The notes: generated from the sequence alone by a model not told the origin. A stretch of DNA of 64,000 bases from Carpediemonas membranifera BICM (GCA_019828565.1 JAHDYR010000062.1:74801-138800), one strand, 5' to 3'. Counted from the stretch's first letter, positions 11,633 through 49,270 are shown. Numbers and translations: made by a program.

Positions 11633-11790
11633 GCGAAAATAACAGTGCATTGCTGTATTCCAAATGTATGACTTATAGTGCAATGCACTGTTATTTTCGC
11701 AGAGCCGAACTTGGACGTGGCCAGAAACTGACATCGCTGAAAAGCTCAGAGACGTCGTTATATCATCTATAACGGCATCTCTGAGCTTTT
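11633..11790. repeat. Two adjacent inverted repeats in an AT-rich spacer
   Basis: Perfect 21-bp arms 11633-11653/11680-11700; 23-bp arms with 2 mismatches 11740-11762/11768-11790. Confidence 0.9.
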
Positions 11791-12076
11791 AAGCACAGTT
11801 TCATCCTGACGTGGAGATTGATGCTTGATAAATTGAAGAATCGACTAGGAGAGCTCTACGCTTGCATGCAGCCTTCTATTAGGTTGTTGATGTTGGTTAT
11901 ATGCTTCTTTTTCGTTCTCGATGCGTGTGGATGAGTATTCTGTTGCAAGATTCATTTTGATGGACTGATGTTGGTTATAGAGGATAAAGGCACCAGAATG
12001 GATCATATGCATGCTATAAACCGTTCTGTGCCGTTGGTCGGACGGCTTCAGAAGTCATTGTATAGAAGGAGATCGT

Positions 12077-20260: not shown

Positions 20261-20640
20261 TATGACGCGCCCGTCTATCATCTGATTAATTTCTTAAATA
20301 AGGCACTTGAAGCTTTGAAGCCGCCGTTCACGGCAGTGGTACCACTTGTTAGCGCGCTGTGTAATTAGAATGATCTTACGTGAGGCATTCCGCCCCTCCA
20401 CGGTCGTAAAACGGCCGTTTGAATATTGATTAGATCAAATGAGCGCCTAAAACTGCTCATTGTGATGATCTTCGTGTTTCTCTTGGTATGTATTGCTGTT
20501 TTCAAGTGAAAATGACCACACCATTCATTAAACACAGTTTCGAAGCAATTAAACACACGTGTTTAAGCTGGCCAACAGATGTTTCGAAACTCGCTTTGCA
20601 AGCAGTTTTTGACCAGTTGAAAGCTAGAAAGTGGTCAGAA

Positions 20641-21612
20641 ATGTACTCAGAAGACCTGGCGTGGCGAGCGATTATACTGTACGATATGTATCACTGGTCT
20701 TTTAGACAGATAGCCACAACTCTTCATCTAGGAAGTCACAACACTGTGAGGAAGTGGTATGCACGCCTTACGGAGCAGCAGAGAGAGAGACAAACTCCAG
20801 GACCAAAGAGTAGTGTTACTGAAGATATGAAGAGCTACATTTCCGTGCTCCTGGACGACGATCCCTGCTTCTACCTTGACGAAGTAATAGAAAAGGTTCA
20901 AGAACAGTTTAATAGGGAGCTGTCGCTATCGACAATGAGGCGAGTGATACACAATGATCTTGGCTTCACCAGAAAGGTGATCGACCGCCGCGCCCAAGAA
21001 GCCCGCAAGTGGGAGTTTAACCGGTTCGTCAACGAGCTCTACCCTCTATACCAGGGCATGGATCAGCTTGTGTTCGGTGACGAGACCGCCAAAGATCTAA
21101 GGGCCGGCCGCCGTCTGCGTGGCTACTCACGAAAGGGCGAGCGCTGCAAGGTCGTATTGCCCTTTGCCCGCGGCCAGCGGTATTCAATCTGCGCATGGCA
21201 GAACAGCGAAGGGTTCTTGGGCCATTCGATAACGGAAGGAACATTCACCTCCCACTCCTTCTACTATGCGTTCTTGAAGGACGTATACTACCGTCTTTCT
21301 CCATAGCCTGGACCCAATAGCATCGTGATTATTGACAACGCACGTATACACAAGCTCCCAGAGCTTAGGACCGCCATCGAGCAAGTCGGGGCGAAACTGA
21401 TCTTCCTTCCGCCTTACAACCCGCACCTCAACCCGATAGAGCAGACGTTTGGAATCATCAAGAGCCGCCTTGCTCGTAGCCGGGCCATTTACGAGACAGA
21501 CCCGCTCAACACTCTTCGCCTCGTGTTCACTGAGGCATGCCACCCTAATAACCACAGCCTCTTCAGCCATCACGGCTACCACGACACCTTCTTTGAAGTC
21601 AGCCTCAAGTAA
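20641..21612 (+). pseudogene. DD34E transposase with one in-frame TAG (21304-21306)
   Basis: VFGDET, P*PGPNSIVIIDNARIH, FLPPYNPHLNPIE. Confidence 0.9.
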
Positions 21613-22400
21613 ACATCTTTAATCATCATGGTCGTGCTCAGAGTCGACATGCTCCTCATCTGGAATGCAAGGCTCGCAATGGGGGGTGGAGGGGGGCGGA
21701 CGGGGGAGACAGGAGCCTCGCCTTGCGATTCCCGTTGTAGGATCGCCACAACCTCATCAAGACGACTCAGAGGGACAGGGACATACAGCAGGATGTCTTG
21801 CTGACCAGCGGGCCGTACAGGTCGGCGAGTTCCCAATGCGTTGCGACGTACAGGCATTGGTGCAGCGCCTGGACGATAAAGGGCAAAGAGATCTCCATCG
21901 GGGGGGTTAAACAGAGTTATGGCGGTGTTCTTGCCCATTTGGGAGGCCCATATCGTGAGGGCTGCGTCGTTGATGGGTGTGCTGCCGTGTGCAGCGACAA
22001 TCGCAGCGCGGTTCGAAGCATGCAGTTGTCTAGTCGCCTCCAATTGCTGCTGGCGCTCTGCCTGTTGGGCCTCGCGACGTGCTGCTGCTGTTTTTGTTGG
22101 ATGGCTGCGGACATATACGCTCACCGAAGGCGTTGCGTACTTCTGGAATCTTGACCAATCAGTCGCGGAGATGTCGGAAAGGCTGTTTCTTGCGTTTGCG
22201 GCGAACTTGATGATCAGGTACTCAGTGCTCTTAGTCTTCATCGCCAAGCTTGTGCCATCAGCATCGCTGTATTCAGTCACTATCTCCGAGACAGTGTCTA
22301 GAAACTCTTCTGGTGACAACTGTGTAAGATCAACATCCTTCTTCACCTTCTTGAACGACTGAGTGCGGTTCTTCTTGATTGCGATTTCTAGTTCCACCAT
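21576..22400 (-). CDS. Accessory ORF of IS630-like element (unknown function)
   Basis: 274-aa ORF inside the TIRs, convergent with the transposase. Confidence 0.75.
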   Translation of the reverse strand: MVELEIAIKKNRTQSFKKVKKDVDLTQLSPEEFLDTVSEIVTEYSDADGTSLAMKTKSTEYLIIKFAANARNSLSDISATDWSRFQKYATPSVSVYVRSHPTKTAAARREAQQAERQQQLEATRQLHASNRAAIVAAHGSTPINDAALTIWASQMGKNTAITLFNPPDGDLFALYRPGAAPMPVRRNALGTRRPVRPAGQQDILLYVPVPLSRLDEVVAILQRESQGEAPVSPVRPPPPPIASLAFQMRSMSTLSTTMMIKDVYLRLTSKKVSW

Positions 22401-22751
22401 TGCCTGTTTTCAATTGATCTGATCACTGTTTCGAAATAGGTGTGTTTTATTGATCTACTGGTCATTTTCACTTGAAAACAGCAATGCTTCACGTCGCCGT
22501 CCTTCTTACATAGAGATCGAAAAACGTCATTAGAAGCCTCAATTCGGCTGCGTTCGCGAGTTCTCGCGTTTTTTTGCTCTCGACGGTGCGAAGTTCTCTC
22601 TCGCGGCTGCAAAAGGCCGCGTTCATCCTCAATAACATCAATCGGGCTTGAATTAGCCGTAAATCAGTGTATTTCAGGGTCCATTGAGGTTGGTTGCTAC
22701 TTCTTTCGAGTTGTTGTTTTCTCAGTGAAAACGGGAAGTGACGAACGAGCA

Positions 22752-23516
22752 ATGTCAGACGTACATGAGCAGATTACGCAGATGCTGGCTCTACACGTGA
22801 GAACCGTGGTGACTCGTGCGAGGCCGAGACCGCTCGTAGCGATGATGAATCTCGGCCGACGGATCACGGCGACTCGGGGTCGGATGAGGAAACCGAAGTC
22901 TCGCCGCTCTTCTCTCTGGAGGAGATGATCACCGCTTTTGCCGCAGAGGGCGTGAGTTACCTCACCCTAGACATATCTGGTACCTTGCGGGCGCTCCGCG
23001 CCGGGATGCTCAACTCATATGGGCATCTCGCCGCAACGGAGAACTCTTCTTCCGTTGCGCGTGACATCTGTCGCGATGGTCTCGTGTTGCTGGCGCTATC
23101 GCGCGAGTACCACACTCTGGCTATGTGTGGTCGGCCTGGCGATCCCACCGATCAGGATCCAATACATTGAAGCAATCTGGACCCCCACTGGTTTCGGTCA
23201 TGTGCGCCACTCTTTGATGGACAACTTCCTGTTCGATGTCCCCAGCAGTGACGTCCTGCCCGTCGCGCTCGATCATAACGAGCCACGTCGTGTGTATGTG
23301 ATTGAGGCAATCGTTGGCCACCATCTGCATGAGAATTCCCTGCGTCTGCTCGTGCACTATGCTCGACGCGAGTACAGCTCGATTATCCTGGCAACCGAGG
23401 CAATCCGTGATAGTCAGGCTGGGGTCAAGTTCTTTGCTGCTCATCCCGAGCTAGTTCGCTATTGTACCCGGTCTGAGGACGCGAACGGTGCTCTCAGCGG
23501 GGGTGTTTTGGAGTGA
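22752..23516 (+). pseudogene. Antisense accessory ORF of chromovirus, degraded, with C-terminal chromo-like domain
   Basis: VYVIEAIVGHHLHENSLRLLVHYARREY; same position and orientation as the other copies. Confidence 0.7.
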
Positions 23517-23750
23517 GATAAATGTTTGGATTGAGTAGCTGCTGAAGGTTTACAGACCGGCTCGCTTGGCCTCGTCTGACTTCAGGAATATGTCTAGCGC
23601 CTCTAGGTCCTTGACTGACGCATAGTCCTGCCACGTGGCCTCTTCGTCTTCGCACCCAGCCCAATGGACGAGGTATTCCCGCTTGGACATCGGGCCTCGA
23701 CCTCGAGATCGACTGATTCGCTCAACTTCCCACTCGTCGTCAGCCGTGGC

Positions 23751-23874
23751 TGTAGCCTTATGGCTAGGGAAAGATTGTTTAATATAAGAAAACCCATGAT
23801 GTGGTGAATATGGTCAATACTATATAAATCTATGAAATGGTAATCCTATGTAACATTGGGTAAGACCCACTGCA
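23751..23874 (-). repeat. 3' LTR (PPT at 23875-23884)
   Basis: Direct repeat of 29939-30063. Confidence 0.97.
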
Positions 23875-24070
23875 CTGCCCCTCCAGTGCCCGTAAGGCAC
23901 GACCTCAAGCAACGCATATATATGGTCGGCAATAGCCGATGAGGATTAGTGAAGTGACAACCGCTTCGAACGTACGAGAGCCACCAAGTACGATCGAAAC
24001 AGTCTACTCTATTGGCGGTAGAGTAGGCTATGTCTGCCCTTCAGGCCTTGATCTACGATCTTAGCCAGTA

Positions 24071-24439
24071 TTATGTAAAGATATGGTTGATACTATTATT
24101 CGAATCTGTATCTATAAAAATCTTGTGGTACCACTGTATAAACGCGCGCGCTAAGTTAGGTATAGGGTATCTTACATGTCCCTGCCCCTCCACGGCCGGA
24201 ATACGGCCGTGATTGTGGCGGTTTGGTTCGGCTGTGCATTTTATGGCACAATGAACCGCGGTTTCGAAAGTTTCACTATACGCGGTATGCAAAGCGCTAG
24301 CCAGCGTATAGTTGTCAAAAATGGGGTTTTCAGCCCTCAACGACGCTTCGTTGGCGAGTTCTCGACGTTTTTTTCTTTTCGGTGCCGAATGAAGGTGCTG
24401 CTCTGCGCTACGTGTGTCCTTCATGAATAACAACATCAA
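24071..24439 (-). CDS. Small sense-strand ORF4 of chromovirus with a probable 42-nt intron (24134-24175)
   Basis: KKRRELANEASLR motif recurs in the same frame near 22560, 33290, 41480 and 43640; GTAAGA...AG intron. Confidence 0.45.
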   Translation of the reverse strand: MMLLFMKDTRSAEQHLHSAPKRKKRRELANEASLRAENPIFDNYTLASALHTAYSETFETAVHCAIKCTAEPNRHNHGRIPAVEGQGHVRYPIPNLARAFIQWYHKIFIDTDSNNSINHIFT

Positions 24440-24683
24440 TACTTAGTAAAAAGCCTTCGTTGCTGCACTGTTTGTGGGATATTGAGGAGTATCTTCACGA
24501 TTCTCCTCAAGGCTTCATGAGCGTCATCGAATCGACCTCCTGCGCCCAGGCTCCGGTCATGATCATGGCTGCTATGGTCTGCGGGTTAGTCAGCTAGGTT
24601 GCAGTAGTTCCCATAAAGTACGATAATTACGTCAATGCATGTAAATGCTGCTTTGAAGGATTTCAAAGCAGCCGTTTGAGGAT

Positions 24684-25932
24684 ATGGAGAATTATACCGC
24701 CGCAATGAAGGCTATAATCGAGGAACTAAGCGATGACGATGACATTGCCGCCCTCAATCGCGTCTTCCGCCACGTTATTCGCAAGCGTGCTCGTCGACGC
24801 GTTGGATCTACCGCCAACTCCGACAACACGACTAATCAGTCCTCCATTGATGCTTCAACAACCGCTACGGGGTCAACAGTCAACGATCAGGAGCGCCAGC
24901 CCGATTCCAGCGTGGTTCCGGCAACCGTCGTCGGCGATTCGCGTCCGTCTCGCCGTGCTAGAGGCAAGCGCCGTATCGGCGTCCGTGATCGAGTTCTCCC
25001 GCCGGCAGTCACGGGCGCGGACGTGGTGTTCGAGCCTCCCCGCATTGATCGCGCCACACGGCTGCGGGGTGAGCTCGATCACGTCATCTCGACGGTCAAG
25101 GCGACGTTATCGACATTCTCATCGCATCTAGAGCTGTCAGTGCAGCCGTTCCTCGATGTGTTGATGAGCGGTGCGCTTAACCAGGCATCGCTGACCTCCG
25201 TTCAGCGCCTCGACGGTGGCGTCATCGCTCTGTCTGGGGCAGTCGATGACTACTATCTGCTTGTCGGCTTCCGCAAGTACTTCGATCTTGGCTCCGGTGT
25301 CAGCGACCGGGAGATCATGAACCAGGTATTCAACGGTCGCCGTGCCGGCGATATCCGCCGGGAGGTCCTGGATGAGGCGGCACGCCTTCTTGCCGTTGGG
25401 GTCGACACGGCACGTAGCCACGTCCGCCGGCTCTATCTTCTTACGCATCATGTTCCGTATTATGCAGTGCTACAGCACGCGATCTGGAGCCGGGTGCTGC
25501 AGGGCCGGCAGTGCCTGTATCGATTTGCCAATGACTGCTACGCCCTTGCCTGCGCCGAGGAGCTGCCGACCCTCAGCCTCCCCCCGGTAGGTACCCCGGT
25601 TTCTTCGTCTTACACAGGATATGACCCGCTTTCAGGTCTACGAGCGCGACCGGTATTATCGCGTGCTGGCTGTGCGTGGTCACTGGTGGCTGTTCGTTGA
25701 GCAGGCCTACCGTGGTCGCGCTGGCTCCTTCTTGCTCCTTGTCGCCTACGACGGGTTCCCTGAAGCAAGTCTGACGCCGGTTAACGCAGACCTTGTCCGC
25801 GTGGCTGTGGTCAACCAGTACCTCAGGGCTCATTCCGAGCTCTGGGACGTTCTGCCTGAGTCCCTGCAGGTAGAGTTGGAAGAAGTGGTGACCAGTGACG
25901 AGGAGTCTGCCGGTGACGAGTTAATGTTCTGA
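24684..25932 (+). CDS. Antisense accessory ORF with C-terminal chromo-like domain (one frameshift near 25570-25620)
   Basis: RYYRVLAVRGHWW...LLLVAYDGFPEASLT...VVNQYL; convergent with pol. Confidence 0.8.
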
Positions 25933-25985
25933 TGATCTTGGTTAGCGCCTTGATAGTCCGTTATTTACACGGCTATGTACAAGGG

Positions 25986-28900
25986 CTATCCGTCTGTATT
26001 GTTCGCCAGGAAGATGTCGAGAGCTGCGCAGTCCTTAACGTTCTTATATGGTTCCCACGTGGATTCTTCGTCCTCAAATCCGGCCCAGTGCACGAGGTAC
26101 TTCTTCTGCGACATGGTACCTGACCCGCGTGCTGCTGAAATGCGGTCGACCAACCACTCGTCCCTGCTAGTTGCAGCGAGTTGCTGGATCTGGTCGTCAG
26201 TTAGTGTACCGGGGTTGAACCTTCGCACTCGTGCGGCATCGACCTTGATGGTCTTACCATTCGTGGGTGACTCTGCCATGTCTTGGACTTCATATGCCAC
26301 GGTGACGCCTGATTGCTTGATGCTCTTAACGCGCCTCATCGGGCCTCTCCACCCTGGTGATAGTTTGTCAGGTGGGCGAGAGGGGTACTTGACCAAGACG
26401 TAACGACTCAGGATCTCCGTACGCGACGAGACGGCCTTCGACCACGCGTCCTCCTTCATCTCTTGGATGCGAGCCTTCGCCAGCTGAATTGCCGCGTCGG
26501 CGGCTGCCCGGTGTGACTGCTTGGCGCTCGCTGACGCTTGCTTGGTAACGTATATTGAGCTAGGCACGGTGAGGTTATATCCCAGGACGATCTCAGCCGG
26601 TGATAGGCGGGTTGGGACTCGCGGCGTGGCGTTGATGATAAAGCTCGCGACAGGCAGGTGATGTATCCAGTTAGAGTCTCTTAGGTGGAACTTGCGTGCC
26701 TTCAAGATGCGTAACACCTCCTTGTTGGCTCGCTCCACCATCCCGTTTGACTGTGGATGGTGGGCCGTAGTGATGTGCGTATCAAAGCCCAACTCCTTGG
26801 ACAACCGTTGGAATAGCTTGTTGTTAAACTCTGGCCCTCCATCGGACTGTAACACCTCTGGGCACCCGAAGCGCAGTACCCAGTTGTTGACGAATGCGTC
26901 AGCTGCTGCTTCGGCTGTGGTCCCGGAGACGGCAACCAGCTCGGTCCACCGTGAGCACATGTCGACCATGACCGTAATGTGCGTCATACCGTCCCGCGTT
27001 GGGAATGGCCCCATAGTGTCGATCGCTACGCGTTTGAACGGGGTCTCTACAGCCGTATGAAACCCGGCCACAGTCTGCTCGGGTGGTCGTTCTAGCACTT
27101 GGCACGTGGGGCAATGAGAGATGAACTCGTCCACAGCTGAGCGGGATACGCTCAACCCGTCGGCTCTCAGTCTGTCGATTGTCTGTCTTCTCGAGAAATG
27201 AGCGCCTGCCATCTCGTGTGCCTTCTTAATCTGATCAGTGGTCGCCTGGGAGCGTACGGTGAAAACTCTCGATAGTCCTTCGGCTCCGGCGTTGTCTAAA
27301 CCTGCAACGTGCTCAATACCGAAGTCTAAGTCGGACAGGGTGTCAGCCCATCGCTTGACCTTGGCGTTAACGCTCCGGAACATGAACAGGAGGTTCCTGT
27401 GGTCGGTCAGGATTGTGAAATGGCCCCAACTGAGGAACTTGCGCCAGCGTTGCACGGCAGCTATAATGGCGTACGCCTCCTTCTCACTGGTAGACCATCT
27501 CGACTGCACCACATTAAAGGCCTTACTCATATAGCATACTGGCCTGCCCTCTTGGAGGAGTACTGCACCGTAGCCGAGCCCTGAGGCATCAGTCATAATA
27601 GTGTGCTCCTTAGTCGCGTCGAAGATGGCGAGTGCGTCCGCCGATGTGAGAGCATCCTTGATCTTCTTCAGCGCTGCGTCCTGTTCAGGCTGGCCGATAG
27701 GCCTGCGCCCGGCCATTGCCTCAGTCAAGGGGAGGGCGATCTCGGCGAAACGGTCCACGTGATCTCTGAAATAGTTCAGAAAGCCTACTAAGCCCTGCAT
27801 CCCACGGACGCTCTTGGGCAACTGGAGCTCTGCAATGTCGGCTACCCGGTCGGGAGCGATGTGTTTCTGCCCCTCGGAGATTACCCAACCTAGGAACTCG
27901 ACCTCGGCACGGCCAAACTGGCACTTCTCCCTATTGAGCTGTAACTTTGTCTCGCGTGCGCGAAGGAGGACCTTGCGGAGATTCTGGAGATATTCCTCTT
28001 CGCTTGCCCCGAAGATGATGATGTCGTCAATGTATATATAACAGGCTGTGCCGACCAGCCCCCGGAAGGCGGACTCCATAGCCCGCTGGAAATGGGCTCC
28101 AGCATTGCGTAGCCCAAAGGGCATCCGGCAGTACTCGTACTGCCCCAGAGCCGTAGTAAATGCGGTGTACTGGCGGCAGCGATCGGTCAGCTCGACTTGG
28201 TGGTAACCGGCGGAGAGGTCGAGGGTTGCGAAGACCTTCTTCCCCGCTAGCTGGGAGATAACCTCGTCAATACGAGGTATGGGGTAGTTGAAAGGTTCGG
28301 TGATGTCGTTAATTTGTCTGAAGTCAACTACGAATCGGGACTTACCCCCTTTCTTGGGTACTGTCATCGCGGGCGAAGCGTAAGGCGATTGACAGGCACG
28401 GATAAATCTCTTCGCCAGGAGAGCGTCAATGTGCTCCTTGACGACGGCTACCTTCGCCGGGGGGATGTAGTATGGTCGCGCGTTCACGACCCTGTCACTC
28501 TTCAGGATCAAGTCGTACGGTTCGAGCTTGCTTGGCTCGTTGCGATCTTCGAACACTGCGCTGAACTCCTTGAGAATCTTGGCCTGTGTATCGCTCGTAG
28601 TGGGGTTCAACTGGTAGACGGCAGCGTCGAACTTGGCGGGCGACGGAATGTCCAGCTCGTCGCTACCCTCCTTGTTCCACTCAGCCTGAGGGAGTATACC
28701 CAACTCAACCATATGGGGGTATCCTAGGATCAGGTCGAAGTCGGTGTCGAGTAGAAGTAGCTCGGCGTTAAATGTACAAGTGCGCGGGGTGAACGATGAT
28801 GGTTGCAGCTTAATCGTAGCGTTGACTCGACCCTGTGACTGTTTCTCGCCGCCTGCTGTTGCGACACGCTCCTGCGTGGTGGATATGACCTCGAGCTTGG

Positions 28901-29918
28901 CTGCGTGGCGAGGGTGGATGCTTGACACGTTAGCTCCCGAGTCTAATAACGCTGTTAGCTTCTGCTTGCCTACTGAAACCGGAACGAGTGGTAGGTTGAT
29001 CTTGGACTTGGACTGATCTGCACTGATAGAGAGAGAATATTGCGGAGATTTATCCCGACAATATCCCTCCAGGTGACCAGTCTTCTTGCAGATCGAGCAC
29101 GTGTGCTTCGGCTTAGGGCACTTGTGCCATGCGTGCTTGCCGCCGCAGTTCCAGCAGGTGTAGTCGCGCTTCTTGTCAGTGCTACTGGGATGGGGCTAAC
29201 GCTCTGACTTATCCCGGTTCAGCGTCTTGTTGCTTCCCTCCTCAGACGGCAGCGGCTGGCGATAAGGATGGCCGTTGCGGCCTGCTCTCTTTCTGTTACC
29301 GCTAGGATGGCCGCCTGTCGGGTGAATGCTCTTGGGGTGCTTCTGTCCGTCTCCTAGGTACGCTTCTCTCAGCTCTTCGCCGTCCCGCAGCTCGGTGCTA
29401 ATGGCGAGTACCTGAGGCATGGCATCACTCAGAGTGGAATCTTCGATCAACTCTTGAATGCGGTACATAGTTCTGCCTGTTCCCTGCTTGAAGCAGCGGG
29501 CGTACGTCTTACACAGTGTCTCCTGTGATGACTCGGGTTGCAGAATAGCCAGCAATGTCTGAAAGCGCTTGTTGATGCGTACCACCTCGCTAGGCGTGAA
29601 GGATGTGGCGTTCAAGCGGAAGTATTCAAGCCTTGCTACCTCGTGGCGTGGTCTAAAGGCCTTGCCGAGACGCTTGACACAAGCGATGTCTTGTTCGCGC
29701 CGGCGTGTAGTCTTGGTCTTGATGAGTGCCACGGGAGGATCGTTGTCGTCCGTGCCGAGTACTCCGTCAACGTAGTCACGGACGCAGCTGTCTATTAGGC
29801 GGTCTGAGCGCTGTTTTCCGCCGAGTGCCCGATAATCTTGGAGCGCTTCCACGAACGTGACTAATTCAGCCACGGACGTGCCCTTCAGTATCGGCGCTTT
29901 GGCCTTCCCGTATACCAT
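25986..29918 (-). CDS. Gag-Pol polyprotein (zinc knuckles, PR, RT, RNase H, integrase, chromodomain) with one in-frame TAG at 29196-29198
   Basis: CSICKKTGHLEGYC, LLDSGA, YIDD, TDAS, IDTMGP/SDGG/VER, KYLVHWAGFEDEESTWEP; gag and pol are in the same frame. Confidence 0.95.
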
Positions 29919-29938
29919 GTTGGTGGGATTAGTACTAA

Positions 29939-30063
29939 TGTAGCCTTATGGCTAGGGAAAGATTGTTTAATATAAGAAAACCCATGATGTGGTGAATATG
30001 GTCAATACTATATAAATCTATGAAATGGTAATACCTATGTAACATTGGGTAAGACCCACTGCA
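29939..30063 (-). repeat. 5' LTR
   Basis: Direct repeat of 23751-23874. Confidence 0.97.
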
Positions 30064-35114: not shown

Positions 35115-36340
35115 TGTTGTCTCCAAAGACTAAGAAGAGTTCCGATTTATAAATAGGGTGACTCTCTGACAGTCATTGACTTGCTGAGTGGAGTCCACAC
35201 TACCTCCCCATGGTCGCACATTGTGCCGGCCATGACAAAACCAATCTGGATGTTGGAATTACATGTTCGAATTGGGCAGTCTCGCTGAGTTCTGCCTGTC
35301 AACCACTGCTGGGATTATGACTGTGGTACAACCATTAACTGGCATTACGTCCCGCAACCCATATCGGGAATTACGCTTTTGTTCTTGAATCGTCCCGTCG
35401 GACAATTGTGTGGTGATGCACGTGCTGCTTTAGAGGTTCCTGTGTTATCATGGGACTGTCCCTACCCCCCACGGACGTTGAGACTCCGTAACTGGGGAAT
35501 TATACATGTTACGTTTGACGTAGATAAATTCTGGAGGCCATAGCACCGGTGATCGAGTTTGTTCGTTCTGCTGCGCTGATTGGCGCTTTTCTTACATAGG
35601 CTTCGAAAATGGCCATTAGAGGCCTCTTCGTTGTGGAGTTCTGGCCCTTTTTTGCATCGCGGCGTTTGTATCGGCGGAGCTTGTCTCATGTGAGCTCCTT
35701 TTCAGATAACCAATATCAATCGGGTCCTAAGTGCCTTATAAACAACTTAGTGCCGTTGTTCTTTTTCCTTGTCGTCGTGTTGTGTTCGGTTTTGTCCTGA
35801 ACAATCGAATTTCAGGCAGATGTCGGTGCCAAGCGACGTGATCGAGCACATGGAGGCGATTTTGGCCGCCATTCCGTCGGACAACTTGCGTGCTACCGTT
35901 CGGGCCGCAGTTGAGCGCGCGTTCCGTCCGCCGCGTCGTGTTCGCCGCGTGAACGCCCCAAATCCCGCAGCGAGCGCGGTATCGGCGGCTGCTCGTTCTC
36001 GCCGTCCGACTACACGCGTCCGTTCGCGTAATCGTCCACCGGAATCCCCGTCTGTACCGGCAAGCGCGGTGCCCAGCTCAGCTCCGTTAGTTCGTCACCC
36101 TGAGGCTGCTCCACGCCCTGAGGCTGCTCGTGCGCGTTGCTTGGACAAGTTAGCTACCGCATCGATCCCGTTGTGGTCGAGTGCCTTCAACTTCATCCCG
36201 GACGACACTGTACTGCCCGTCTACGCCTTAGGCTCGACCCTGGTCGCGTTGCCGGTCGACCACCACCGACGTGCCGCACGCCGGGGCGGTGTTGAGCTCT
36301 CGCTCGCTCGCGATGCCCTCGTTCTTCACGCTTGGTGCGT
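35115..36340 (-). mobile_element. 3' fragment of another chromovirus (probable LTR 35115-35199, PPT, N-terminal part of antisense ORF 35820-36340)
   Basis: GGGGAGGTAG-TGTGG junction; ORF4-like segment; MSVPSDVIEHMEAIL...R/S/P-rich linker. Confidence 0.6.
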
Positions 36341-36379
36341 CAAGTTTGATTGGGAGAAGAACTTTTTGATGGGAAGCTG

Positions 36380-36817
36380 ATGTCGAGAACTGTAACATGC
36401 AGTAGGTGCCGTGTTACCGGTCATAACGCCAATGGATGCCCATTCAAAAACGTATTGGAGGTGAACAGCGATCAAGCAGCCATTGACGCGGTGTTAACGC
36501 CCCGGATGAAGGAGTTGGTACGAGACAATGAGCTCTCGCGCTCGCTGCCTGGAAAACTCATCGCGGCATGGGCATATGAAATCGACAATGCAACTGCAAC
36601 CGTCGCTACGCCACCAGCCGGTCTTATGACCCCTCACACGACACCGTCATCCAGCGACTACGTCCCCCGCCGTAGAGAGGCTCAAAAGCCGACCTTCATC
36701 AGCATTCCCGTCCGCCCAGAAGTGTACTCCCGCGTTATCTCATTCGTTGCTAGCCTTGAGGAAGCTCCGCCGCCTTCTGATGTTTCCGTGGCCGAAAGCC
36801 AAGCGCTACTTGAATAA
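36380..36817 (+). CDS. IS630 accessory ORF2, CCHC zinc-knuckle protein
   Basis: CSRCRVTGHNANGC; three homologues in the window, always convergent with a DD35E-family transposase. Confidence 0.85.
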   Translation: MSRTVTCSRCRVTGHNANGCPFKNVLEVNSDQAAIDAVLTPRMKELVRDNELSRSLPGKLIAAWAYEIDNATATVATPPAGLMTPHTTPSSSDYVPRRREAQKPTFISIPVRPEVYSRVISFVASLEEAPPPSDVSVAESQALLE

Positions 36818-36824
36818 ACAGCAT

Positions 36825-37793
36825 TTACAAAGCATAGCCATGCTTGGCGTAGAGTCCGAGGATGTCAGAGTCCTTGACCAGGTCGAAGGCATGGAGGATA
36901 CTGGGCAAACGGCCTTCTTCCTTAAAATGCGTGGCGACATAGGCCTTGACTTGGCCGAATACTACCTCTATGGGGCTCAAGAAGGGAGAGTATGGAGGAA
37001 GGAAGACAATACGAACATCATAAATGCGGGACAAGTTGTTGATTCGCTCCTCATCTTTGTGTTTGCGCGCGTTGTCAAGGATGATGCAGTGTCCGGGAAT
37101 ATGTGGTAGCAAAGCAATCATGAACTGCCAGAAGAGGTCAGCGTTGTAAGTGCCGCTTGTAATGTGCCTGTGAACTATCCCCGAAGTCGTGAGGGCTGCT
37201 ACGACCGAGTATCGCTTACCCAGGGCAGCACCTGAGCGACGCGCGATGGTTCTCTGACCCTGCGGGCTACGGACTCTCTTCACACGAAGGCCACGAGGGT
37301 CGAATGACGTCTCATCAATGAAGCAGAGCTTGTCCAGCCCATAGTGCGGGATCGCCTCGGTAACCATAAATGAGCGGAAGCGGAGCGCCTTTTCTGGGTC
37401 ATACTCCATCCACCGAGTCTCTCCGACGGTGAGGACAAGGCCCTCCTCGTGGTTAAGGACGTGGCTGAGGTATCCTGTGCTGAGGCTAACCTGGAACTTT
37501 TCGAAAATTTCTTGTTGAATATCCTTCAACTGAGCTGCTTCGTTTGATCTAACGTAGTCAACAAGGTAGTTGCGCATGTTTCTCGTTAGCTTGCGCGGTT
37601 CCACCACTCTTTTGCCCTCAGGCGCCCCGTAGCTCGCTTGAATTCTACGAAGAGTGGTTCTAGAATGCCCATAGAGAGAGCATAGAACGCTCTTCGGTAC
37701 ACCTGCGGCCATCAGACATCTCAGTTCGTTGCGTCTTTCAAGCGTGATCGTCATTTCGAGTGGCAATTTGTGTCCACAACTTTGATGGGACAA
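36825..37793 (-). CDS. Intact IS630/Tc1-type DD35E transposase
   Basis: FIDETSF, LDNARKH, FLPPYSPFLSPIE; element TIR ends at 39854 before TA. Confidence 0.93.
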   Translation of the reverse strand: MSHQSCGHKLPLEMTITLERRNELRCLMAAGVPKSVLCSLYGHSRTTLRRIQASYGAPEGKRVVEPRKLTRNMRNYLVDYVRSNEAAQLKDIQQEIFEKFQVSLSTGYLSHVLNHEEGLVLTVGETRWMEYDPEKALRFRSFMVTEAIPHYGLDKLCFIDETSFDPRGLRVKRVRSPQGQRTIARRSGAALGKRYSVVAALTTSGIVHRHITSGTYNADLFWQFMIALLPHIPGHCIILDNARKHKDEERINNLSRIYDVRIVFLPPYSPFLSPIEVVFGQVKAYVATHFKEEGRLPSILHAFDLVKDSDILGLYAKHGYAL

Positions 37794-37853
37794 TGATTAG
37801 GTGGACACTCTGTAGTGGCCATATTTAAGCTCCAATAAATTCCCAATCACACC

Positions 37854-38894
37854 GTGGTGATCACAAGTGCGATGGATAGGAGGAGACGTGTGTTCTCAAT
37901 CGGTGAAAGAGAAGCGATCAGAGCTGCTGGAGAACGACTAGGGCCAACTGCAGCGGCGAAAGAGTTCGATCTGCCGCTTCAAACTGTCAAGGGCATTATA
38001 TACAGGAACAGAGACGGAAAACAACGAGGACCAGCAAGGAACGAAGGGCTTTATGAACAGGTACGCGAGACTATGTTGAACAAACGCGGAAATCTCAAGC
38101 TCCTTCATCTACAGTACAACGCCGAGATGGGAAGCTCAGTGCCGAGGACGACATTCGCCCGCTGCCTCGCTGAGGCTCGCCTCTCTGTCCGCTGTGGGTC
38201 CAAAGGAGCCAAGTGCATGCGACGAGAAGACTGGGTTGAGGTAGCCAGGATGAGAGCCAAGTACATCACTCACGTTGGGCAGGTTCTAGTGCACGACGAG
38301 AGCATGTTCACCTGGAGGGGCATCAGAGACATCACTGACAAGGTGGTGGCTCCAACTGGGACGAACCAGGTGACAATCCCGCTAGATCGACTGGTAATCC
38401 CGACAGTGACGTTACTTACTGCGCTCATCTCCGTCGAGGGATTTGTCTTTGGTGATGTCTACGTTGGCACGAAGGGCGCTATCAACGGAGAACGATTCAA
38501 GAGGATCCTGCAGAGCGCTAGTGACGTTATTTATCCATATCCTGGCAAGCATTCGGTCATTATCACCGATAACGCGAGCTTTCATGACCGCGATGCAATG
38601 CAAGAGATTGTTGATGGCTTTGGCTGCATGGTTATATGGACTCCGCCCAATGGATCCACTGTTAGTCCCATCGAAGAAGCGTTCGGGCACCTTAAGGCAA
38701 CAGTGAACGAAGAGGTTGCAAAGGCGATTATTGGGGGCAAAATACGCTGGACTGCTGAGCAAGTGAGCGAAGTCATCCTCAGGCACGCATTCTCACAGCC
38801 TGCGCATCGTTTTCCTCGCTTGTTCATGCGTGCTGGCATTTCTGCCACGACTGACTGGTCCTACTGGGATAGATCAGCATATGGCAAGCTATAA
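37854..38894 (+). CDS. Divergent IS630/Tc1-type DD34E transposase
   Basis: HTH N-terminus, VHDESM, ITDNASFH, WTPPNGSTVSPIEE. Confidence 0.88.
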   Translation: MVITSAMDRRRRVFSIGEREAIRAAGERLGPTAAAKEFDLPLQTVKGIIYRNRDGKQRGPARNEGLYEQVRETMLNKRGNLKLLHLQYNAEMGSSVPRTTFARCLAEARLSVRCGSKGAKCMRREDWVEVARMRAKYITHVGQVLVHDESMFTWRGIRDITDKVVAPTGTNQVTIPLDRLVIPTVTLLTALISVEGFVFGDVYVGTKGAINGERFKRILQSASDVIYPYPGKHSVIITDNASFHDRDAMQEIVDGFGCMVIWTPPNGSTVSPIEEAFGHLKATVNEEVAKAIIGGKIRWTAEQVSEVILRHAFSQPAHRFPRLFMRAGISATTDWSYWDRSAYGKL

Positions 38895-38899
38895 ATGTT

Positions 38900-39774
38900 T
38901 ATTCCTCTCTTGCTAGCAGCCTGTCAATGGCCTTGAGCGTCTCTTGCCGAACTGCCGGATCATCGAAGCGTTTGAGGCTTCCACTCGTTCTTCTGACGAG
39001 TATGTGAGCATGGATCTCCATGACTAGAGAGTAAACGTCTCCATACGTGGCAAAGGGTAGATTCCGGAAGAATCCATTGTTGTTGGCATGTGAGAAGGAT
39101 CTGACAACTCCTGAGACAGATTTGAGTCGAGCGGCTGACTGATGGTTAGATGGCGTCCTGGCAGCAGCACACGGTCACCTGAGAAGAATATCTGAGCTTG
39201 GTTCTCTTCCGAAGACTGTGCCCCTCGCTCGGGACGCTGCTCTTCGTCGAAGGTTATGACGTCATTTCTGTCGTGCTCCTTGGCGACACGAGACCAGAAA
39301 CTTGCCGTGACAACAACAGCGTAAAGGGTGATGGATGCTTGCCCCTGCTCTGCCGCCTGGAGTAAATACTCGATCCAATCATCGGCGGTAAGAATGGCGT
39401 GGTTCGGGCTGTGATGAAACAGCAGTACTGAAGACCCACAGTGTCGCTGTGCCTTCAGGTAGACGTTGCGAGGGTTCAGTACATCCGCTGGGGAGAGAGA
39501 AGGTTGTATCACCTCTCTTGCCCGGTTTGACGGATGTGAACATGACGAATGCGTAATCATTATCTTTGAAGTTGGCAAAAGCGGACTTCTTGCCATTTCT
39601 CTTCAGAAGTGGTACTCCGGCTAGGCTTCTTACCTTCAGAGCAACAATGAGGTCACGTTGAGCGGACAGAAGCTGTTCCTCGCTGAATGACACCTCTCTT
39701 CGCATCGAAAGGCTCCCCTCGCTGCTATGAACCTTCCACTGCTGTATCGACGGAGCTGTGACTGGCTGTGACAT
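38900..39774 (-). pseudogene. Convergent accessory ORF (frameshifted) of the DD34E element
   Basis: Overlapping ORFs 39379-39774 and 39024-39596 lie inside the TIRs. Confidence 0.55.
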
Positions 39775-39856
39775 GGGTGCTTATACAATGATCCAAATCA
39801 CAATTTCGGGGAGCTTAAATATGGGCACTACAGACTTTTAGATCAAAACTGCAATA

Positions 39857-40800: not shown

Positions 40801-40827
40801 CCATGACCTCGCACAGTTCTTTAACGG

Positions 40828-42225
40828 TGTGATCACTAAGGAAAAAGGCTTTATAAAGAGAGCTCGACACAAGGGTGTCGAGCTGGACGGATCAAGACCG
40901 TATCAAATACGTATCTCATATATAAATGGCTGACACTTCCCCCCCATGCTCTGTTAAGAGCATCACGAAAAGGATACCATTGTTAATCAGGTCTTGGGGG
41001 AATAGCCCAAGAGTGCTGACCCTATAACCGTCGATCGCTGGGGAATGACCAGTGATCCGGGGATGCCAACTAAGTTCAACTTAGGAGGCTGACCGTCGCG
41101 CACACGGGACTTGCGTGTACGCCGGATAGTATCCGTTGACTAGGCTGACGACATAGCGTCCTAAGCCATCGCCCGGCGTGGAGTCCACCCACGGAACTTC
41201 TCTAAAGATTTTCTAGATTGCGCAAAGATTCTACAGATTCGAAAAGACTCGTGGTACCACTAAATAAGCGCGCTGTGTCATGGGTATCTTACCTGGGGAT
41301 CCTGCCCCTCCTAGTAGTCGATACATACCAGTGTTCTGTCTGATTGCATCAAACCGTGCAGGTTATGTCATGCATTCGGCTTGATTCGGAATAGTTGGCG
41401 GTTTGTGCCCTTCTTCCGCTATTTCTTACATAGGCTTCGAAAATGCGGTTAATTAGCTCCAATTCCGCTTCCTTGGCGAGATACGGGCGTTTTCTTCTCT
41501 TCGTCTCCGCTCGGACTTCTTGTGCCCAGAATACGAGCTCCATCATGAATAACCAACATCACAACCACGTTCTACGCATAAACTTTGTCCGTTATCACTT
41601 CTTTGAGGGGTTTTCTTCCCCTTTTCCTCGAGATCTCGTCTCGGCATAAAACGCGCGAGAGAATGCGTGAACGGCTGTCCCTTGGCCAGTATTGGCTATA
41701 CAGGCGTGCTCAGCGTCTGTAACTTGCACGGTGGGTGTCCTCCTGAGATTATATAACTCATGTATACATGTAAATCAAATCTGGGACGCGTCCTAGATTT
41801 CAAACGGCGCTATGGCAAACGTTGAGAAGGAACTCTTTGCTGCAATCGACCAGTATATGACGGCCAATCCTACTGGTGTGCTCATCTCCGATCTTCAGGC
41901 CTTGAAGCGAAAGCACGTCGAGCTGCTGAATGGTGACGGCTCCCAGGAAGCTACTGAGGGTTCTCACACGCCTCCATCCACTGACAACACCGCTGAGACC
42001 ACCGATGGTGATGCCATTTCGCACCAAGAAGCTGGTTCAGCTCCCGATCGCACCGTTCTCCGACCTCGACGCTCCGGACGGCACATCACCGACTGCCATC
42101 CCGAATCTGCTCAGACCACAATCACCCGCACGAGCGAGCTGGGCGCTGAGTTCAACCAGCGCGTCGTCGAGGTCCCCGTCCGCCAATTCCACCGACAGAC
42201 CCGTTACCGCGCCAATGTCGAATAG
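40828..42225 (-). mobile_element. 3' fragment of a chromovirus (probable LTR 40828-40935, PPT, 3' cassette, N-terminus of antisense ORF 41812-42225)
   Basis: GGGGGGGAAG-TGTCAG junction; cassette at 41251-41311; LQALKRKH as in 33638. Confidence 0.7.
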
Positions 42226-42229
42226 ATAG

Positions 42230-42850
42230 AGAGGATAGATTTCGGTGCATTTTAAGGTAAACAGTTCACGTCCACAACAGGAAGGCGCAGCTTCTGGCAG
42301 TAGGCGCACTCCTGAGACGCTCGACGTCAACACTCATCGTAGGCCAGACAAGGCCAGAGTCCTTCAGGCGTCGGAGAGTCTCATCGCGGCCCATATGTCC
42401 AGCGTGAGCGTTGTGGACCTGCTCAAAGCAGAGGCGCGCGATGGCGTCGATCTGGGGCTTGGCAAAGAGACAGCGGGAGAGTGCGTCTGGGACAACATTC
42501 TCCTTGCCAGGAATGTGCTCAATGTCATATGAGTACTCCTGGAGTCGTAGGGCCCATCTCATGTCATATTGGGGGTAAGGGATTTCCTCATGAACACGAG
42601 GTTCCGGTGATCGGTTTGAATGAGAAAATGATAGCCAAGCAGATGATGAGAGAATTTCATGACGACGGCAAAATAGACGCCGAACGCTTCTTTCTCTATA
42701 GTAGCCCATCTACGTTCTGCTTCAGTGAATGTGTGCGAACAATACTCGCAAATGCGCTCTTTTCCGTCGACGACGTTCAGCAACATAACGCCGCAGCCGA
42801 TATCTGAGGCGTCCGTTCTAACGACGATGGGGTAACAATAATCTTGATGA
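42230..42850 (-). pseudogene. Gypsy RNase H/integrase zinc-finger remnant
   Basis: WATIEKEAFGV, IQTDHRNL, IPGKENVVPDALSR; sister of 53370-55560. Confidence 0.85.
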
Positions 42851-43068
42851 TAGAGCGTGTCTGCGTTGGCGATGAGGTTCTTCGCCTCGTCGTAACAACA
42901 CGCATCAGATCCCTGCCTGACCAGTCACTCGACATCACTTCCTTACATTCTGAGGCAACCCGGCTTATTGCGAGATTCGAGCCATCGATTGTCAACTTAT
43001 TTGCATGTTTGGGCGACTTGATTGTCTGCCCAACACTACGACGCCACATCGTTCTGCAGGGGGAGAGC

Positions 43069-46000
43069 TGTGGTCCTCTTGGGCCAAACAAAGGTAAAAA
43101 GGGTTTACAAAGAGATGAGTCGACACAATGGGTGTCGTTTGACTGTTGTTGACTGTGTAAATATGTTTTCTGTGTAACATGTGGGTAGGACCCACGACAC
43201 TGCCTCCCCATGGCTCGCAGAGCCATGACGAGAATATGTGAGCGAATGCTCTAAAACTCAAGTGACCTCCGGGACGTCGGGGGGCCAACCCTTCAGTACA
43301 CCTTTGGCGACATCCTTGGCAGGGATGCCAGGCGAACACCTCATATGAGTTGCCAGAATAGGCTGGTTTGAGAATCTCGAAAAAGATTCGGGATCCGAAC
43401 GGATTCAATCATTGTGGTACCACTGGGTTAGCTAGCTATGTTATGCGATGTCTTACCGGGGTCCTCTGCCCCTCCACGGACCCTAAAAGGGCCGTTTGAA
43501 ATTTGATTATCTCGATCTGATGCCTTAAAGTGCATCATGAGACGTAGATGGGAAAGTCTTCGGGTATGTAGCCCGAAGCGCCCATACTTACATGGGTGCC
43601 GAAAAACGCCTTTAGAGGCCTCAATTCGGCCTCGTTCGCGAGTTCTGGCGATTTTTCTTCTTCTGCTCGTTGCGTTGCTTCTTGGAACGGCTTAAGGCCT
43701 TCCTTCTCTAATTAACAACATCAATATCTATGCCATTAGCCTTTTGGGGTAAGAAGGCCGTTGTTATCTCTTGAACTCGGCCTTTGGTTTTGGGAATTAG
43801 GGATCGGCCCGAACGAGCCTTCAGAAATCGATGACGATCAATAAATGGCGAATTATGAGTGTTACCACGGTATTGCTCGTCTAAAGTTGGGTAGACTAGG
43901 TCAGTGTGCACCCTCAAGGTCCATATCCTTGCATATGTAACTAACGTAAATGGAACTTCAATCATCGTCGAAGCTTCATAGCGTTACAATGAGCGATTTG
44001 GCCGCTGATCTGGACGTCCTAATTGACGAGTTGTCGACAATACCGCAAGCTTCTGCCATTGTTCCTCGCTTGCGGGCTGTTCGTGAACGTCACTGCGCTG
44101 CACGTGCGCTCGCAACTACTACGGAGACTTCTGCTACTTCTCCATCCGTCGAGGCCGTCCCAACTGAACGACCGCCTGCGGAATCAGCTCGTTCAGTCAC
44201 CATCCCCGTCACGCGGGAGCAACCCATTCGTCGTCGCCATCCCACACACGCGCGCATTACTGGCGTCGTTGTGAACGAGGAGGGGCACACGCAGACCCGT
44301 AGTGGTCACGTCGTGCGTATCCACACCTCTTCCGCTGCCCCTTCGGTCCCTACCGTCGCTGCAAGGCTTCGTCGCAGCTCGGACCGTCCCTCGCGCTCCA
44401 ATGTCATGCGGGCGCGGTTTTCAGCCCGCGGCTCGCCCTCGCGCGGGGCTTGATGCTCGCGAGCAACGCTTCCTGGCTGTGCTGTCCAGTGTCACCAGTC
44501 TCGTCAGCAACTGCTACGAGGTGAGCTTGCACGCGCTTCTTTCTCGTCTCAACGACGGATCCGTGTTCAGTGGAGAGCTTGGTTTCGATCAGACCCTGCT
44601 TCGTTCACTCAGGCTCCTGGGCGATTTCGCTCAGGATGCTCTCGTGGGCCGGCGCCTCCGTTCGTACCTGCAAGTAACCTCCGCTGGGGACCTCGCCCTC
44701 GCGCAGGCGTTGCTGGCCGACGCCGCCCTCTCAACGCACGGGGCCTTCTCCACTGGAGTCGTCTCGGCTGTCGTGGCTTGCCTAGAGGAGTCTAACTCCG
44801 ACTTGACGAGTACCGGTCTGTCATACCGGCGCGAGCTGGCTAATCAGTGCCTGAAACGGGTTGTCATGATCGGCTGTCACCCACACGTCTTCTCCTGCTG
44901 GTTGATCGCCCAAGTGCGGTCTACCGATCGTTTGACCTGGCGTTTTGCCATCCAGTTCGTCGCTGATTACTATTGCCTCCTGGAGGCTGGTCGCCTGGCT
45001 GCTATCGAGTGTGATGTACAAGATCGTGCTCTCCTGACGCCGCAGGTGACTGACCGCACCGTAGATTACATCATCGTTGAGGTCCTTCGCCACATGGAGC
45101 AGTATGATGTTCCTCTACTCGAGTCTTTCACCCTGGTTGTGAAATACCAAAACTACGCCGTTCCCGGCTTGACTCAACTCACCCAGAGTATGTGTCGCGT
45201 CACCCTGGTGGCTGATTATCTAACGCAAAATGACTTATGGCCTCGCGTTCGGGTTGAATGGCGTCCTATCGAGCTCATCGTTGACGCTAATGAGTCTGTC
45301 GGTGCTGTTGACGAATAAAAGTCGGATTTGAAGGCTCGTGAAGTTTACAGGCCATCAATTTTTGCCTGATCTGACTTCAAATATATATCCAGCGCTTCCA
45401 AATCCTTCACGTATATATAATCCTGCCAAGTAGCTTCAGAGTCTTCGAACCCGACCCAGTGAGTCAGGTACTCACGCTTCGACATGGGTCCTCGGCCTCT
45501 TGACTTGCTGATACGGTCTACCTCCCACTCATCGACAGCCGTCGCAGCTAGAGCTTTGATTTCGCTCTCTGATAGCAATCCTGGGTCAAACCTTCTGACC
45601 CTGGCGGCGTCTACCTTGACCGTTGGGCCATCCTTACCTTCTGCTAGGTCTTGGACGGTATAACCCACCGTCACGCCGTCGACCTTGACGCTGTCTACGC
45701 GACGCATAGGCCCCCTCCAGCCTGGAGACAACTTGTTGGGGGGTCTAGACGGGTATTTCACCAGCACAAACCGGCTTAGGATCTCTTGTCGCGTTGTAGA
45801 GGCTTTGGCTAATGCTTCCTCCTTGGCTGCCTTGATCCGGCTGCTAGCCAGCCGCACTGCGGCGTCAGCTGCTGCCCGATGGCATTGCTTCGCCGCTGCT
45901 GTTGAGGTGGACGTAATAAATATCCGTTGTGGCACGTTAGTCTGGAAACCGAACACCATCTCAGTGGGTGAGAGGTGGGTGGGTACGCGGGGTGCGGTGT

Positions 46001-48968: not shown

Positions 48969-49270
48969 TACTAATAGGTTGATTCAGCATTTAGAGCGGG
49001 CAACCAGTCCCGCTATGCTAGATTTTGATACATAAAACGTCGCCGGTACTTGGTAGTGAACTACCAACAAGGTAGTATGAACTACCTACTAGGTAGTATG
49101 AAGCTCGCAAACGCTCTCTGGTGTTCCTCGGTCCAACGCCATGAGGTCTTACCAGACGTTAGGGCGTACAACGGTGCCATAATGGTGTGGTGAGGCGCAG
49201 TTTAAGGTTTTGGTTTTTGACCATTTTCTCCACTGCGGTTTCCAGGAGTAAATCAGTTCTCATCCATTAA

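Follow-up and report, generated by a model that had tools for sequence, protein, structure and literature searches.

Why would a long terminal repeat (LTR) retrotransposon keep an intron-like segment on its own coding strand? The question is raised by a 64,000-nucleotide stretch of Carpediemonas membranifera BICM (GCA_019828565.1, JAHDYR010000062.1:74801-138800), referred to below as the window, which is a nest of transposons. The named proteins nearest to those of the window are from Carpediemonas membranifera, with one member of their cluster 100% identical to 51059-51562; this points to that free-living fornicate protist, or a very close relative, as the host. Towards the 3' end of five of its LTR elements (designated E1 to E5), a cassette was found on the gag-pol strand, made up of an ACGG hairpin (in four of the five), a copy of the polypurine tract (PPT), a GT-AG segment and the palindrome GTGGTACCAC. 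The elements are Ty3/Gypsy chromoviruses by domain order, and the cassette is a real, lineage-specific cis-element of one chromovirus lineage. The answer preferred here, and held tentatively, is that the GT-AG segment may be a weakly spliced micro-intron of host type which carries a dimerisation or packaging signal, so that only unspliced RNA would be copied.

E2 is the only full-length element, the others being 5'-truncated or nested. It has the order gag, protease, reverse transcriptase, RNase H, integrase and chromodomain (Chromo, E 6.7e-09, Pfam), and its LTRs, with TG...CA ends, are 99.2% alike. Its features, together with the cassettes of the other elements and the corresponding region of a sixth family (E6), were located as follows.

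23751-30063, minus strand: E2, with the 5' LTR at 29939-30063 (125 nt), the 3' LTR at 23751-23874 (124 nt) and the target duplication GCCA
29196-29918 and 25986-29195, minus strand: gag and pol (with chromodomain) of E2, respectively
29928-29939, minus strand: primer-binding position of E2, a 12-nt palindrome ATTAGTACTAAT including the last A of the 5' LTR
24125-24438, minus strand: block of E2, from the TGATRTTG motif to GTGGTACCAC
24182-24210, minus strand: hairpin (24192-24210) and upstream PPT copy GGAGGGGCAG (24182-24191) of E2
24134-24175, minus strand: intron-like segment of E2, 42 nt, GTAAGA ... GCGCGCGC ... TTTAT-AC-AG
24125-24134, unstranded: palindrome GTGGTACCAC of E2, the first G of which is the G of the AG
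23875-23900, minus strand: true PPT of E2 (23875-23884) with its own hairpin upstream
20336-20418, minus strand: cassette of E1, with hairpin 20400-20418, tract 20390-20399, intron-like segment 20345-20379 (AGCGCGCT inside) and palindrome 20336-20345
22492-22642, minus strand: upstream part of the E1 block, split off by a Tc1-like insertion (about 20492-22485)
33058-33371, minus strand: block of E3, with hairpin 33127-33146, tract GGGAGGGCGG 33117-33126, intron-like segment 33067-33107 and palindrome 33058-33067; true PPT 32772-32781
33237-33242, minus strand: second GTAAG of E3, part of the TTCTTACATAG motif on the plus strand
41251-41561, minus strand: block of E4, without ACGG hairpin, with tract 41302-41311, intron-like segment 41260-41292 (AGCGCGCT inside) and palindrome 41251-41260; true PPT 40936-40945
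43414-43723, minus strand: block of E5, with hairpin 43476-43495, tract 43466-43475, intron-like segment 43423-43456 (TAGCTAGCTA inside) and palindrome 43414-43423; true PPT 43200-43209
35200-35718, minus strand: E6, with hairpin 35471-35489, tract 35462-35470, GCACGTGC at the intron position and true PPT 35200-35209
35323-35332, minus strand: one-mismatch palindrome GTTGTACCAC of E6, about 90 nt further on

The five GT-AG segments had been described in an earlier note, and all were found on the minus (gag-pol) strand where it had placed them and with the lengths it gave (35, 42, 41, 33 and 34 nt in E1 to E5, respectively). The joint pattern GTAAGA-N15-45-AGTGGTACCAC was matched five times in the window, and 100 shuffles used as the control gave a mean of 0.00 and a maximum of 0; GTGGTACCAC had five exact occurrences and three with a single mismatch, 8 in all against a mean of 1.70. 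Each cassette belongs to a different family: the pol of E5 (45345-48983, minus strand) gave no Chromo hit in Pfam, yet is 62.8% alike to that of E2 over 1057 residues, and the surrounding block is 48-62.5% alike. The spacer of 6-10 nt between the purine tract and the donor, and the absence of the ACGG hairpin from the copy at 41.3 kb (E4), were also borne out, and other parts of the description had to be narrowed. The hairpin is present in 4/5 copies, but its Watson-Crick stems are short (4, 7, 4 and 4 bp in E1, E2, E3 and E5, respectively), and the covariation proposed as a check on it did not appear, with 75% of positions paired against 72% in the control and 172 of 500 shuffles as high. Identity of the upstream tract to the true PPT was confirmed in the 24-kb element (E2) only; in the copies at 33, 41 and 43 kb, 1-3 letters separate upstream tract and true PPT, the two tracts having the same consensus in E3-E6. 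The distance from tract to true PPT, which had been put at about 300 bp, is not fixed and runs from 261 to 366 nt. To the five copies a sixth family (E6, 35.2-35.7 kb) has to be added, which has the hairpin and the tract without an intact GTAAGA, AG or palindrome.

Introns of the host were used as the yardstick for the GT-AG segments, and four of them were located in the window.

63660-63691 (32 nt) and 63432-63462 (31 nt), minus strand: introns of a host ribosomal protein gene (L7Ae/S12e family), by reading of the open reading frame (ORF) and Pfam
63063-63094 (32 nt) and 62986-63019 (34 nt), minus strand: introns of a host LYR-family gene, by ORF reading

The two genes give 139 aa and 84 aa, respectively, only if both introns are taken out, and the Pfam match of the ribosomal protein continues over intron 2 (profile positions 2-48 and 50-93 on either side). 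All four introns are 31-34 nt long with the branch abutting the AG (3/4 by the YTNAY pattern), and their donors are GTTCGT, GTTTGT, GTATGT and GTTCGT (class GTWYGT). In PMC1201135 a branch adjoining the AG is given for introns of Carpediemonas membranifera, and GTAYGT for the Trichomonas donor. By this measure the cassette segments are indeed close to host intron size, as had been claimed: 2/5 lie within the host range and 3/5 are longer by 1-8 nt. The branch motif YTNAY stands 1-3 nt ahead of the AG in 5/5 cassettes, an arrangement seen at 350 of the 8206 AGs in the window (4.3%) and at 16 of 259 in the 3' regions. Branch letters differ between cassettes at loose positions only, and the interior of the segment varies in length and sequence. 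Nine of the 84 GTAAG sites in the window have a YTNAY-type acceptor 28-45 nt on, of which five are the cassettes and four are among the other 79 sites. The A of the AG is kept in 5/5 cassettes, though GTGGTACCAC has no need of that A. The segment bears the marks of host micro-introns, with donor, branch motif and AG in host geometry in every copy, and the spliceosome probably acts on it, if inefficiently. The intron reading of the earlier note stood as to this geometry and as to intron-less copies of the cassette, none of which was found within the 64-kb window. The note had overlooked that the class of the donor is not the host's, and also the palindrome within the intron, the 305-bp block of fixed length and the sixth family with its missing splice signals. 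Provided that the segment is spliced at all, retention of an intron in the sense orientation means that only unspliced RNA is copied.

The letters shared with the canonical donor CAG/GTAAGT are 7-8 of 9 in the cassettes and 5-6 of 9 in the host introns. A preference for U at +4 is tied in PMC10581693 to the loss of METTL16, with no orthologue among the excavates sampled there. With GTAAGA in place of the GTWYGT of the host, retention would be favoured.

Palindromes are the second mark of the segment. A perfect one of 8-10 nt stands just before the branch in four of the five (AGCGCGCT in E1 and E4, GCGCGCGC in E2 and TAGCTAGCTA in E5), the chance rate being 7-10% per intron; between E1 (AGCGCGCT) and E5 (AGCTAGCT) there is a double change by which the palindrome is preserved, and E6 has GCACGTGC at this place. 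GTGGTACCAC follows directly after the segment in 5/5 cassettes and shares its first G with the AG. When 30-nt windows were ranked by dimer energy, the cassette came first in E2, E4 and E5, and 8, 5 and 14 windows were better in E3, E6 and E1, respectively. Since the cassette is defined by a palindrome, this ranking is partly circular, and the ranking of intron-only 20-nt windows by self-dimer energy was therefore used instead, in which the best window was in the top 0.2% (E2), 3.0% (E4) and 3.8% (E5). The true PPT is also preceded by a hairpin, which RNAfold draws in 5/5 elements with a 3' LTR (z-scores -0.34, -0.49, -2.42, -3.72 and +0.65), and strict stems of 5-7 bp abut the true PPT in 3/5; with a hairpin before both tracts, there are two hairpin-plus-PPT units, at a distance of 261-366 nt. 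A pairing between the donor and the hairpin at the LTR start, which was seen by eye in E2 and partly in E5 and is absent in E3 and E4, was dropped.

From the sequence itself, its conservation in five families, the branch-AG geometry, the non-host donor and the palindromes, we infer a retention switch composed of splicing, retention, dimerisation and packaging. The segment would be recognised by the host spliceosome, and its +4A/+6A donor would be poorly used (the host has a pyrimidine at +4 and T at +6), leaving a pool of unspliced RNA. The intron palindrome and the adjoining GTGGTACCAC would then pair between two RNAs in the manner of the dimer sites of Ty1, Ty3 and retroviruses, and the short leader, with only about 20 nt from LTR to gag ATG, may be the reason why the dimer signal has moved to the 3' end. 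The spliced RNA would be the mRNA and would not be copied, which is how the intron would persist, and the unspliced RNA would dimerise, be packaged and be reverse-transcribed. The upstream PPT copy might serve as a second plus-strand origin, or might pair with the C-run before the donor.

Several observations weigh against such a switch. The cassette donor GTAAGA, with C at -3 in 5/5, matches 0/4 host donors, a small sample, and the five copies share their ancestry, so that 5/5 does not stand for five independent draws. The segment of E3 has an imperfect hairpin and no perfect palindrome, and the self-dimer rank of intron-only windows is top 35.6% in E3 and top 11.4% in E1. A conserved RNA fold of the block is weak or absent on either strand, with no consensus structure supported. 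E6 has its hairpin, tract and upstream motifs intact, together with the block and its spacing, and has no intact donor, AG or GTGGTACCAC, which makes the intron look dispensable in this one family. Since the interval remains in place, E6 is not a spliced copy; it either moved without the intron or expanded and decayed. GTAAG recurs 135-137 nt ahead of the cassette donor in E3, E4 and E5, and this second site is present in E1 and E6 and absent in E2; by eye no acceptor of its own was seen, and its motif resembles the sequence upstream of a non-retroelement ORF at 11.5 kb. The cassette is, lastly, held at a fixed distance from an initiator-like motif of an antisense gene, which is explained more simply by a DNA element. 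In other folding comparisons, the z-scores of the cassettes were -0.91 to +0.69, and Rfam gave 0 matches at the gathering score across the window.

The alternative that survives best starts from this distance. The cassette is the 3' end of a block of about 305 bp that begins at the TGATRTTG motif (AACATCA on the plus strand), and it could be the far end of a DNA control region, a promoter or upstream activating region, perhaps nucleosome-phased or bidirectional, of the antisense gene, with GTGGTACCAC as the site of a dimeric protein, TCTTAC as a repeated site and the intron look as a by-product. AACATCA, the likely initiator of the antisense gene, is also found ahead of the start codon of the host LYR gene and, in two copies, upstream of an unrelated ORF at 11.9 kb. 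Counted from this motif, the upstream PPT copy comes after 245-250 nt (five families) and the palindrome after 300-304 nt (four families); from the palindrome to the true PPT the distance varies from 214 to 315 nt, and the flanking intervals vary by 21 and 101 nt. The lengths of the inner segments compensate each other (r = -0.93, with 1/24 permutations as tight, n = 4), and in E6 a loss of 8 nt is balanced by a gain of about 10 nt. The antisense gene was located in the following elements.

24684-25700, plus strand: antisense ORF of E2, no Pfam family at cut-off
22971-23516, plus strand: homologue in E1
33611-34726, plus strand: homologue in E3
41812- (fragment), plus strand: homologue in E4
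about 43990-45318, plus strand: homologue in E5
35751-36380, plus strand: homologue in E6
50266-51036, plus strand: homologue in a further element, E7

The antisense ORF lies between pol and the block in all cassette-bearing elements; E7 has the ORF, with its 3' region replaced. Neither the antisense ORF nor the block is present in a chromovirus from a different clade (53.3-55.5 kb, about 30% to E2), which runs from the end of pol directly to PPT and LTR; this also speaks for a control region. So do the two copies of TAACCAACATCA upstream of the unrelated ORF at 11.9 kb, the two copies of TCTTAC in the block, the conservation of the motifs as primary sequence without covariation, and the antisense gene of maize Grande, which has its own promoter (a title cited in PMC11963269). 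A promoter leaves unexplained, however, why donor, degenerate branch and AG stand on the right strand, in the right order and at near-host length in 5/5 copies, and why a tract of PPT consensus has a hairpin in front of it, as at the true PPT. Given the fixed spacing, the second GTAAG and the lack of a conserved RNA fold, this alternative was kept as a serious though doubtful one. A role at the DNA level is favoured by the sequence for at least the upstream part of the block, and promoter and splice roles can overlap. If the promoter is the right answer, a 305-bp spacing held across families about half alike would be unusual in itself.

Among 1.84 billion representatives, the antisense protein was matched by 7 at E <= 0.001, four of them strong; its relatives are almost only in this lineage, and one at 98% is named Carpediemonas membranifera. 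No known family, and neither TRP28 nor any other Pfam domain, was found in it. The AlphaFold model was unusable (predicted local distance difference test score 38.9), and a weak ClpS match (E 0.007) was taken as chance. The ends of four antisense proteins (33611-34726, 44275-45318, 50266-51036 and 22971-23516, plus strand) read Y-x-V/I-x-E/D-x-L/V-x-H ... L-x-V-x-Y, which resembles the start of a chromodomain; this likeness, noted by eye, was not significant (best E 0.02 among 8 sequences; hhalign 0.1%). At 11400-12000 (minus strand), upstream of an ORF of 565 aa without known function, there are two long inverted repeats, two TAACCAACATCA motifs and a TTACATA-CGTTCGA-CCGAGATAT stretch similar to the upstream motif of the elements.

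A second alternative is that the cassette is a priming module free of tRNA, in which splicing, or the first spliceosomal cleavage alone, would make an RNA that anneals to a palindromic primer-binding site (PBS) and is cut into the minus-strand primer; the upstream tract would provide a second plus-strand origin. In its favour is the PBS of E2, where TTAGTACTAA stands at the place of a TGG-starting site (0-3 nt after the 5' LTR) and TGG is absent, the gag ATG following about 20 nt beyond. In E2 the predicted spliced junction forms 13 bp with the 19-nt PBS region, pointing towards U5, at -14.5 kcal/mol (unspliced -6.0), better than any 25-nt window of E2 itself (best -14.3). Random joins reach -14.5 in 0.07% of cases, and joins with one real exon kept in 0.5% and 2.0%; the junctions of the other four families give -6.2 to -9.3 on the E2 PBS. 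Moreover, spliceosomal cleavage forms RNA 3' ends in fungal telomerase RNA (PMC4299874). This is, however, a single cognate pair found after the fact. The energies are not specific either, as is seen when the junctions of E3 (-15.6) and E2 (-13.5) are paired with the PBS-like site of E8, which belongs to an unrelated Gypsy clade; the true PPT window scores -13.7 on the E2 PBS from G-richness alone. A branch abutting the AG should favour the second splicing step, and LTR-PBS pairing of Tf1 type is also possible in E2 (9 bp with two G:U pairs, P = 0.09 against shuffles; the Tf1/Sushi criterion is at least 10 nt). The module is unlikely, and its narrower form is improbable, namely that a spliced purine-rich exon plus UGGUAC would anneal to the palindromic tRNA-free PBS of an unspliced partner, each particle needing one spliced and one unspliced RNA and the intron being inherited from the unspliced template. 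Beside the PBS of E2, two sites of other Gypsy clades were noted. E8 (58-59 kb) has a possible 210-nt 5' LTR at 59200-59417 (minus strand) starting with TGGTACCAC, and CA followed by GTAGTACT upstream of gag, like the E2 PBS, the sole other match to that motif in the window. At 57560-57620 (minus strand), an AT-rich run apparently stands before gag instead of a PBS.

A third alternative, which is quite unlikely, sees in the segment a true intron, or a site bound by U1, that serves another purpose, for instance the suppression of early polyadenylation or the licensing of long-RNA export, the palindromes being incidental. WGTAAA stands at or just after the pol stop in 5/5 elements (25960-25990, 45345, 34760, 51056 and 23545, minus strand), and likewise at the stop of the host ribosomal protein gene; a role of WGTAAA in polyadenylation is known from Giardia. 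This suggests a gag-pol mRNA ending before the antisense region, and the long RNA accordingly depends on readthrough of a likely poly(A) site. Both GTAAG sites are suited to pairing with U1, but they lie about 1.8 kb beyond the WGTAAA signal, and U1 binding alone needs neither branch nor AG.

The weakest alternative is a relic of a PPT-LTR-PBS junction (a tandem element or a fusion like a terminal-repeat retrotransposon in miniature), in which TGGTACCAC would be a former tRNA primer site or the former start of an LTR. A tRNA ending in UACCA is the signature of the initiator, and TGGTA would fit such a tRNA. The duplicated hairpin plus PPT and the TGGTACCAC that lies 210 nt upstream of the PBS-like site of E8 (perhaps the LTR start of E8) also speak for a relic, which is nonetheless most improbable: the tract is followed by no fixed TG, E4 has no CA end, the segment is unlike the LTRs, a relic would not remain letter-perfect in families 48-62% alike, and chance alone would give about one TGGTACCA per 64 kb. 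The mini-LTR and the TGGTA tRNA site offered in the earlier note are likewise not supported; the latter, as an internal primer site, would presume a host tRNA ending in GUGGUACCA, the real PBS of E2 has no TGG, and no tRNA gene was found within the 64-kb window. The block as a whole was likewise dropped as an LTR relic with TG...CA ends, there being no PPT or PBS beside it.

As for the neighbourhood, E2 is nested in the integrase of E1, and the E1 block is in turn split by a Tc1-like insertion. An in-frame TAG (29196-29198, minus strand) separates the E2 gag from zinc knuckle and pol, whereas in E5 and relatives gag runs on into them as one ORF; it is either a mutation in this copy or programmed readthrough. 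The LTRs of E3, E4 and E5 (32660-32700, 40850-40890 and 43110-43140, minus strand) have in common a CGACACCC...GTGTCGA hairpin, followed by a likely poly(A) signal. Tc1/IS630-like DDE transposons lie at 20443-22485, 36825-37796, 37809-39834 and 1303-2230, two of them inserted in retroelements. Paired subterminal repeats (1063-1228/18806-18969 and 2440-2537/19098-19160) flank 3.4-18.8 kb, a stretch that holds a broken kinase and long, intron-poor ORFs with no Pfam family, and that may be one large DNA transposon.

Relatives were also sought outside the window. The cassette pattern gave 0 loci in viral contigs and two in metagenome contigs, both judged chance, in bacterial-looking DNA. The pol alignment had no relative in viral contigs and matched 47 distant Gypsy loci in genome contigs at 28-38% identity, with no close relative among them; GTGGTACCAC was found in 0/47 of these loci, and the block profile matched in 0/49. 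The 47 contigs (L003-L049) are filed as bacterial genomes and hold eukaryotic Gypsy pol, probably by bin contamination. The relevant passages of PMC8516963, PMC5874029 and PMC6673714 hold nothing on the block, and in the open-licence literature nothing turned up on Carpediemonas retrotransposons or on this combination of features.

If the segment is spliced, an LTR retrotransposon lineage would have kept a non-coding intron of 33-42 nt on its own strand, of host style with a detuned donor. The retention switch would then be a compact device, its signal placed at the 3' end, for deciding whether an RNA is translated or packaged; how this choice is made is open for most retrotransposons.

Each part of the cassette has a precedent in known elements, and the block itself was not found outside the window, in searches that reached no close relative. 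With the Ty3/Gypsy chromoviruses (Metaviridae) the elements share domain order, TG...CA LTRs, PPT and 4-bp target duplication, the best solved match being Ty3 Gag-Pol; they differ in the 125-nt LTR, the leader of about 20 nt, the palindromic PBS, the antisense ORF and a 3' block with an intron-like segment and a second hairpin-PPT. In retroviruses, BARE and Cer1, spliced mRNA is set apart from unspliced genome RNA (PMC3735527, PMC10309623). An intron in the copied RNA and translation of the spliced RNA, as proposed here, would be common to both, but splicing there alters the protein, whereas here a non-coding segment of 33-42 nt lies 3' to every sense ORF. Ty3 PAL6, Ty1 PAL1/PAL2 and the HIV-1 dimerisation initiation site (PMC11381356) are likewise short self-complementary motifs; these dimer sites are at the 5' end, whereas the motifs here, as putative dimer sites, are in tandem near the 3' end, with one inside the intron-like segment. 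The fungal Copia element GalEa (PMC5445492) resembles E2 in the absence of TGG and in a palindrome that takes in the final A of the 5' LTR, but has a complementary second motif 12-41 nt on, which was not seen in E2, and its passages do not mention a 3' cassette; Skipper (PMC5006619), with a non-tRNA PBS, also has no TGG there. The primers of GalEa and Skipper are left open in these papers, and the palindromic PBS of E2 bears on how such tRNA-free elements prime. An antisense ORF between pol and 3' LTR, in the same position and orientation as here, is known from Retand, Grande and RIRE2 (PMC11963269) and from REM1 (via PMC2774666), and antisense ORFs are also described in PMC6317226. In contrast to Retand, Grande, RIRE2 and REM1, the antisense ORF here is without TRP28 or other Pfam domain, and the chromodomain stays on the integrase. 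Lentiviruses, for their part, have a central PPT. A second PPT-like tract upstream of the true PPT is found as PPTa in Bongo3 of beet (PMC3605345), in one family and at the pol stop, whereas six families have the second tract here; its distance from the true PPT is 261-366 nt, and it is preceded by a hairpin and followed after 6-10 nt by a donor.

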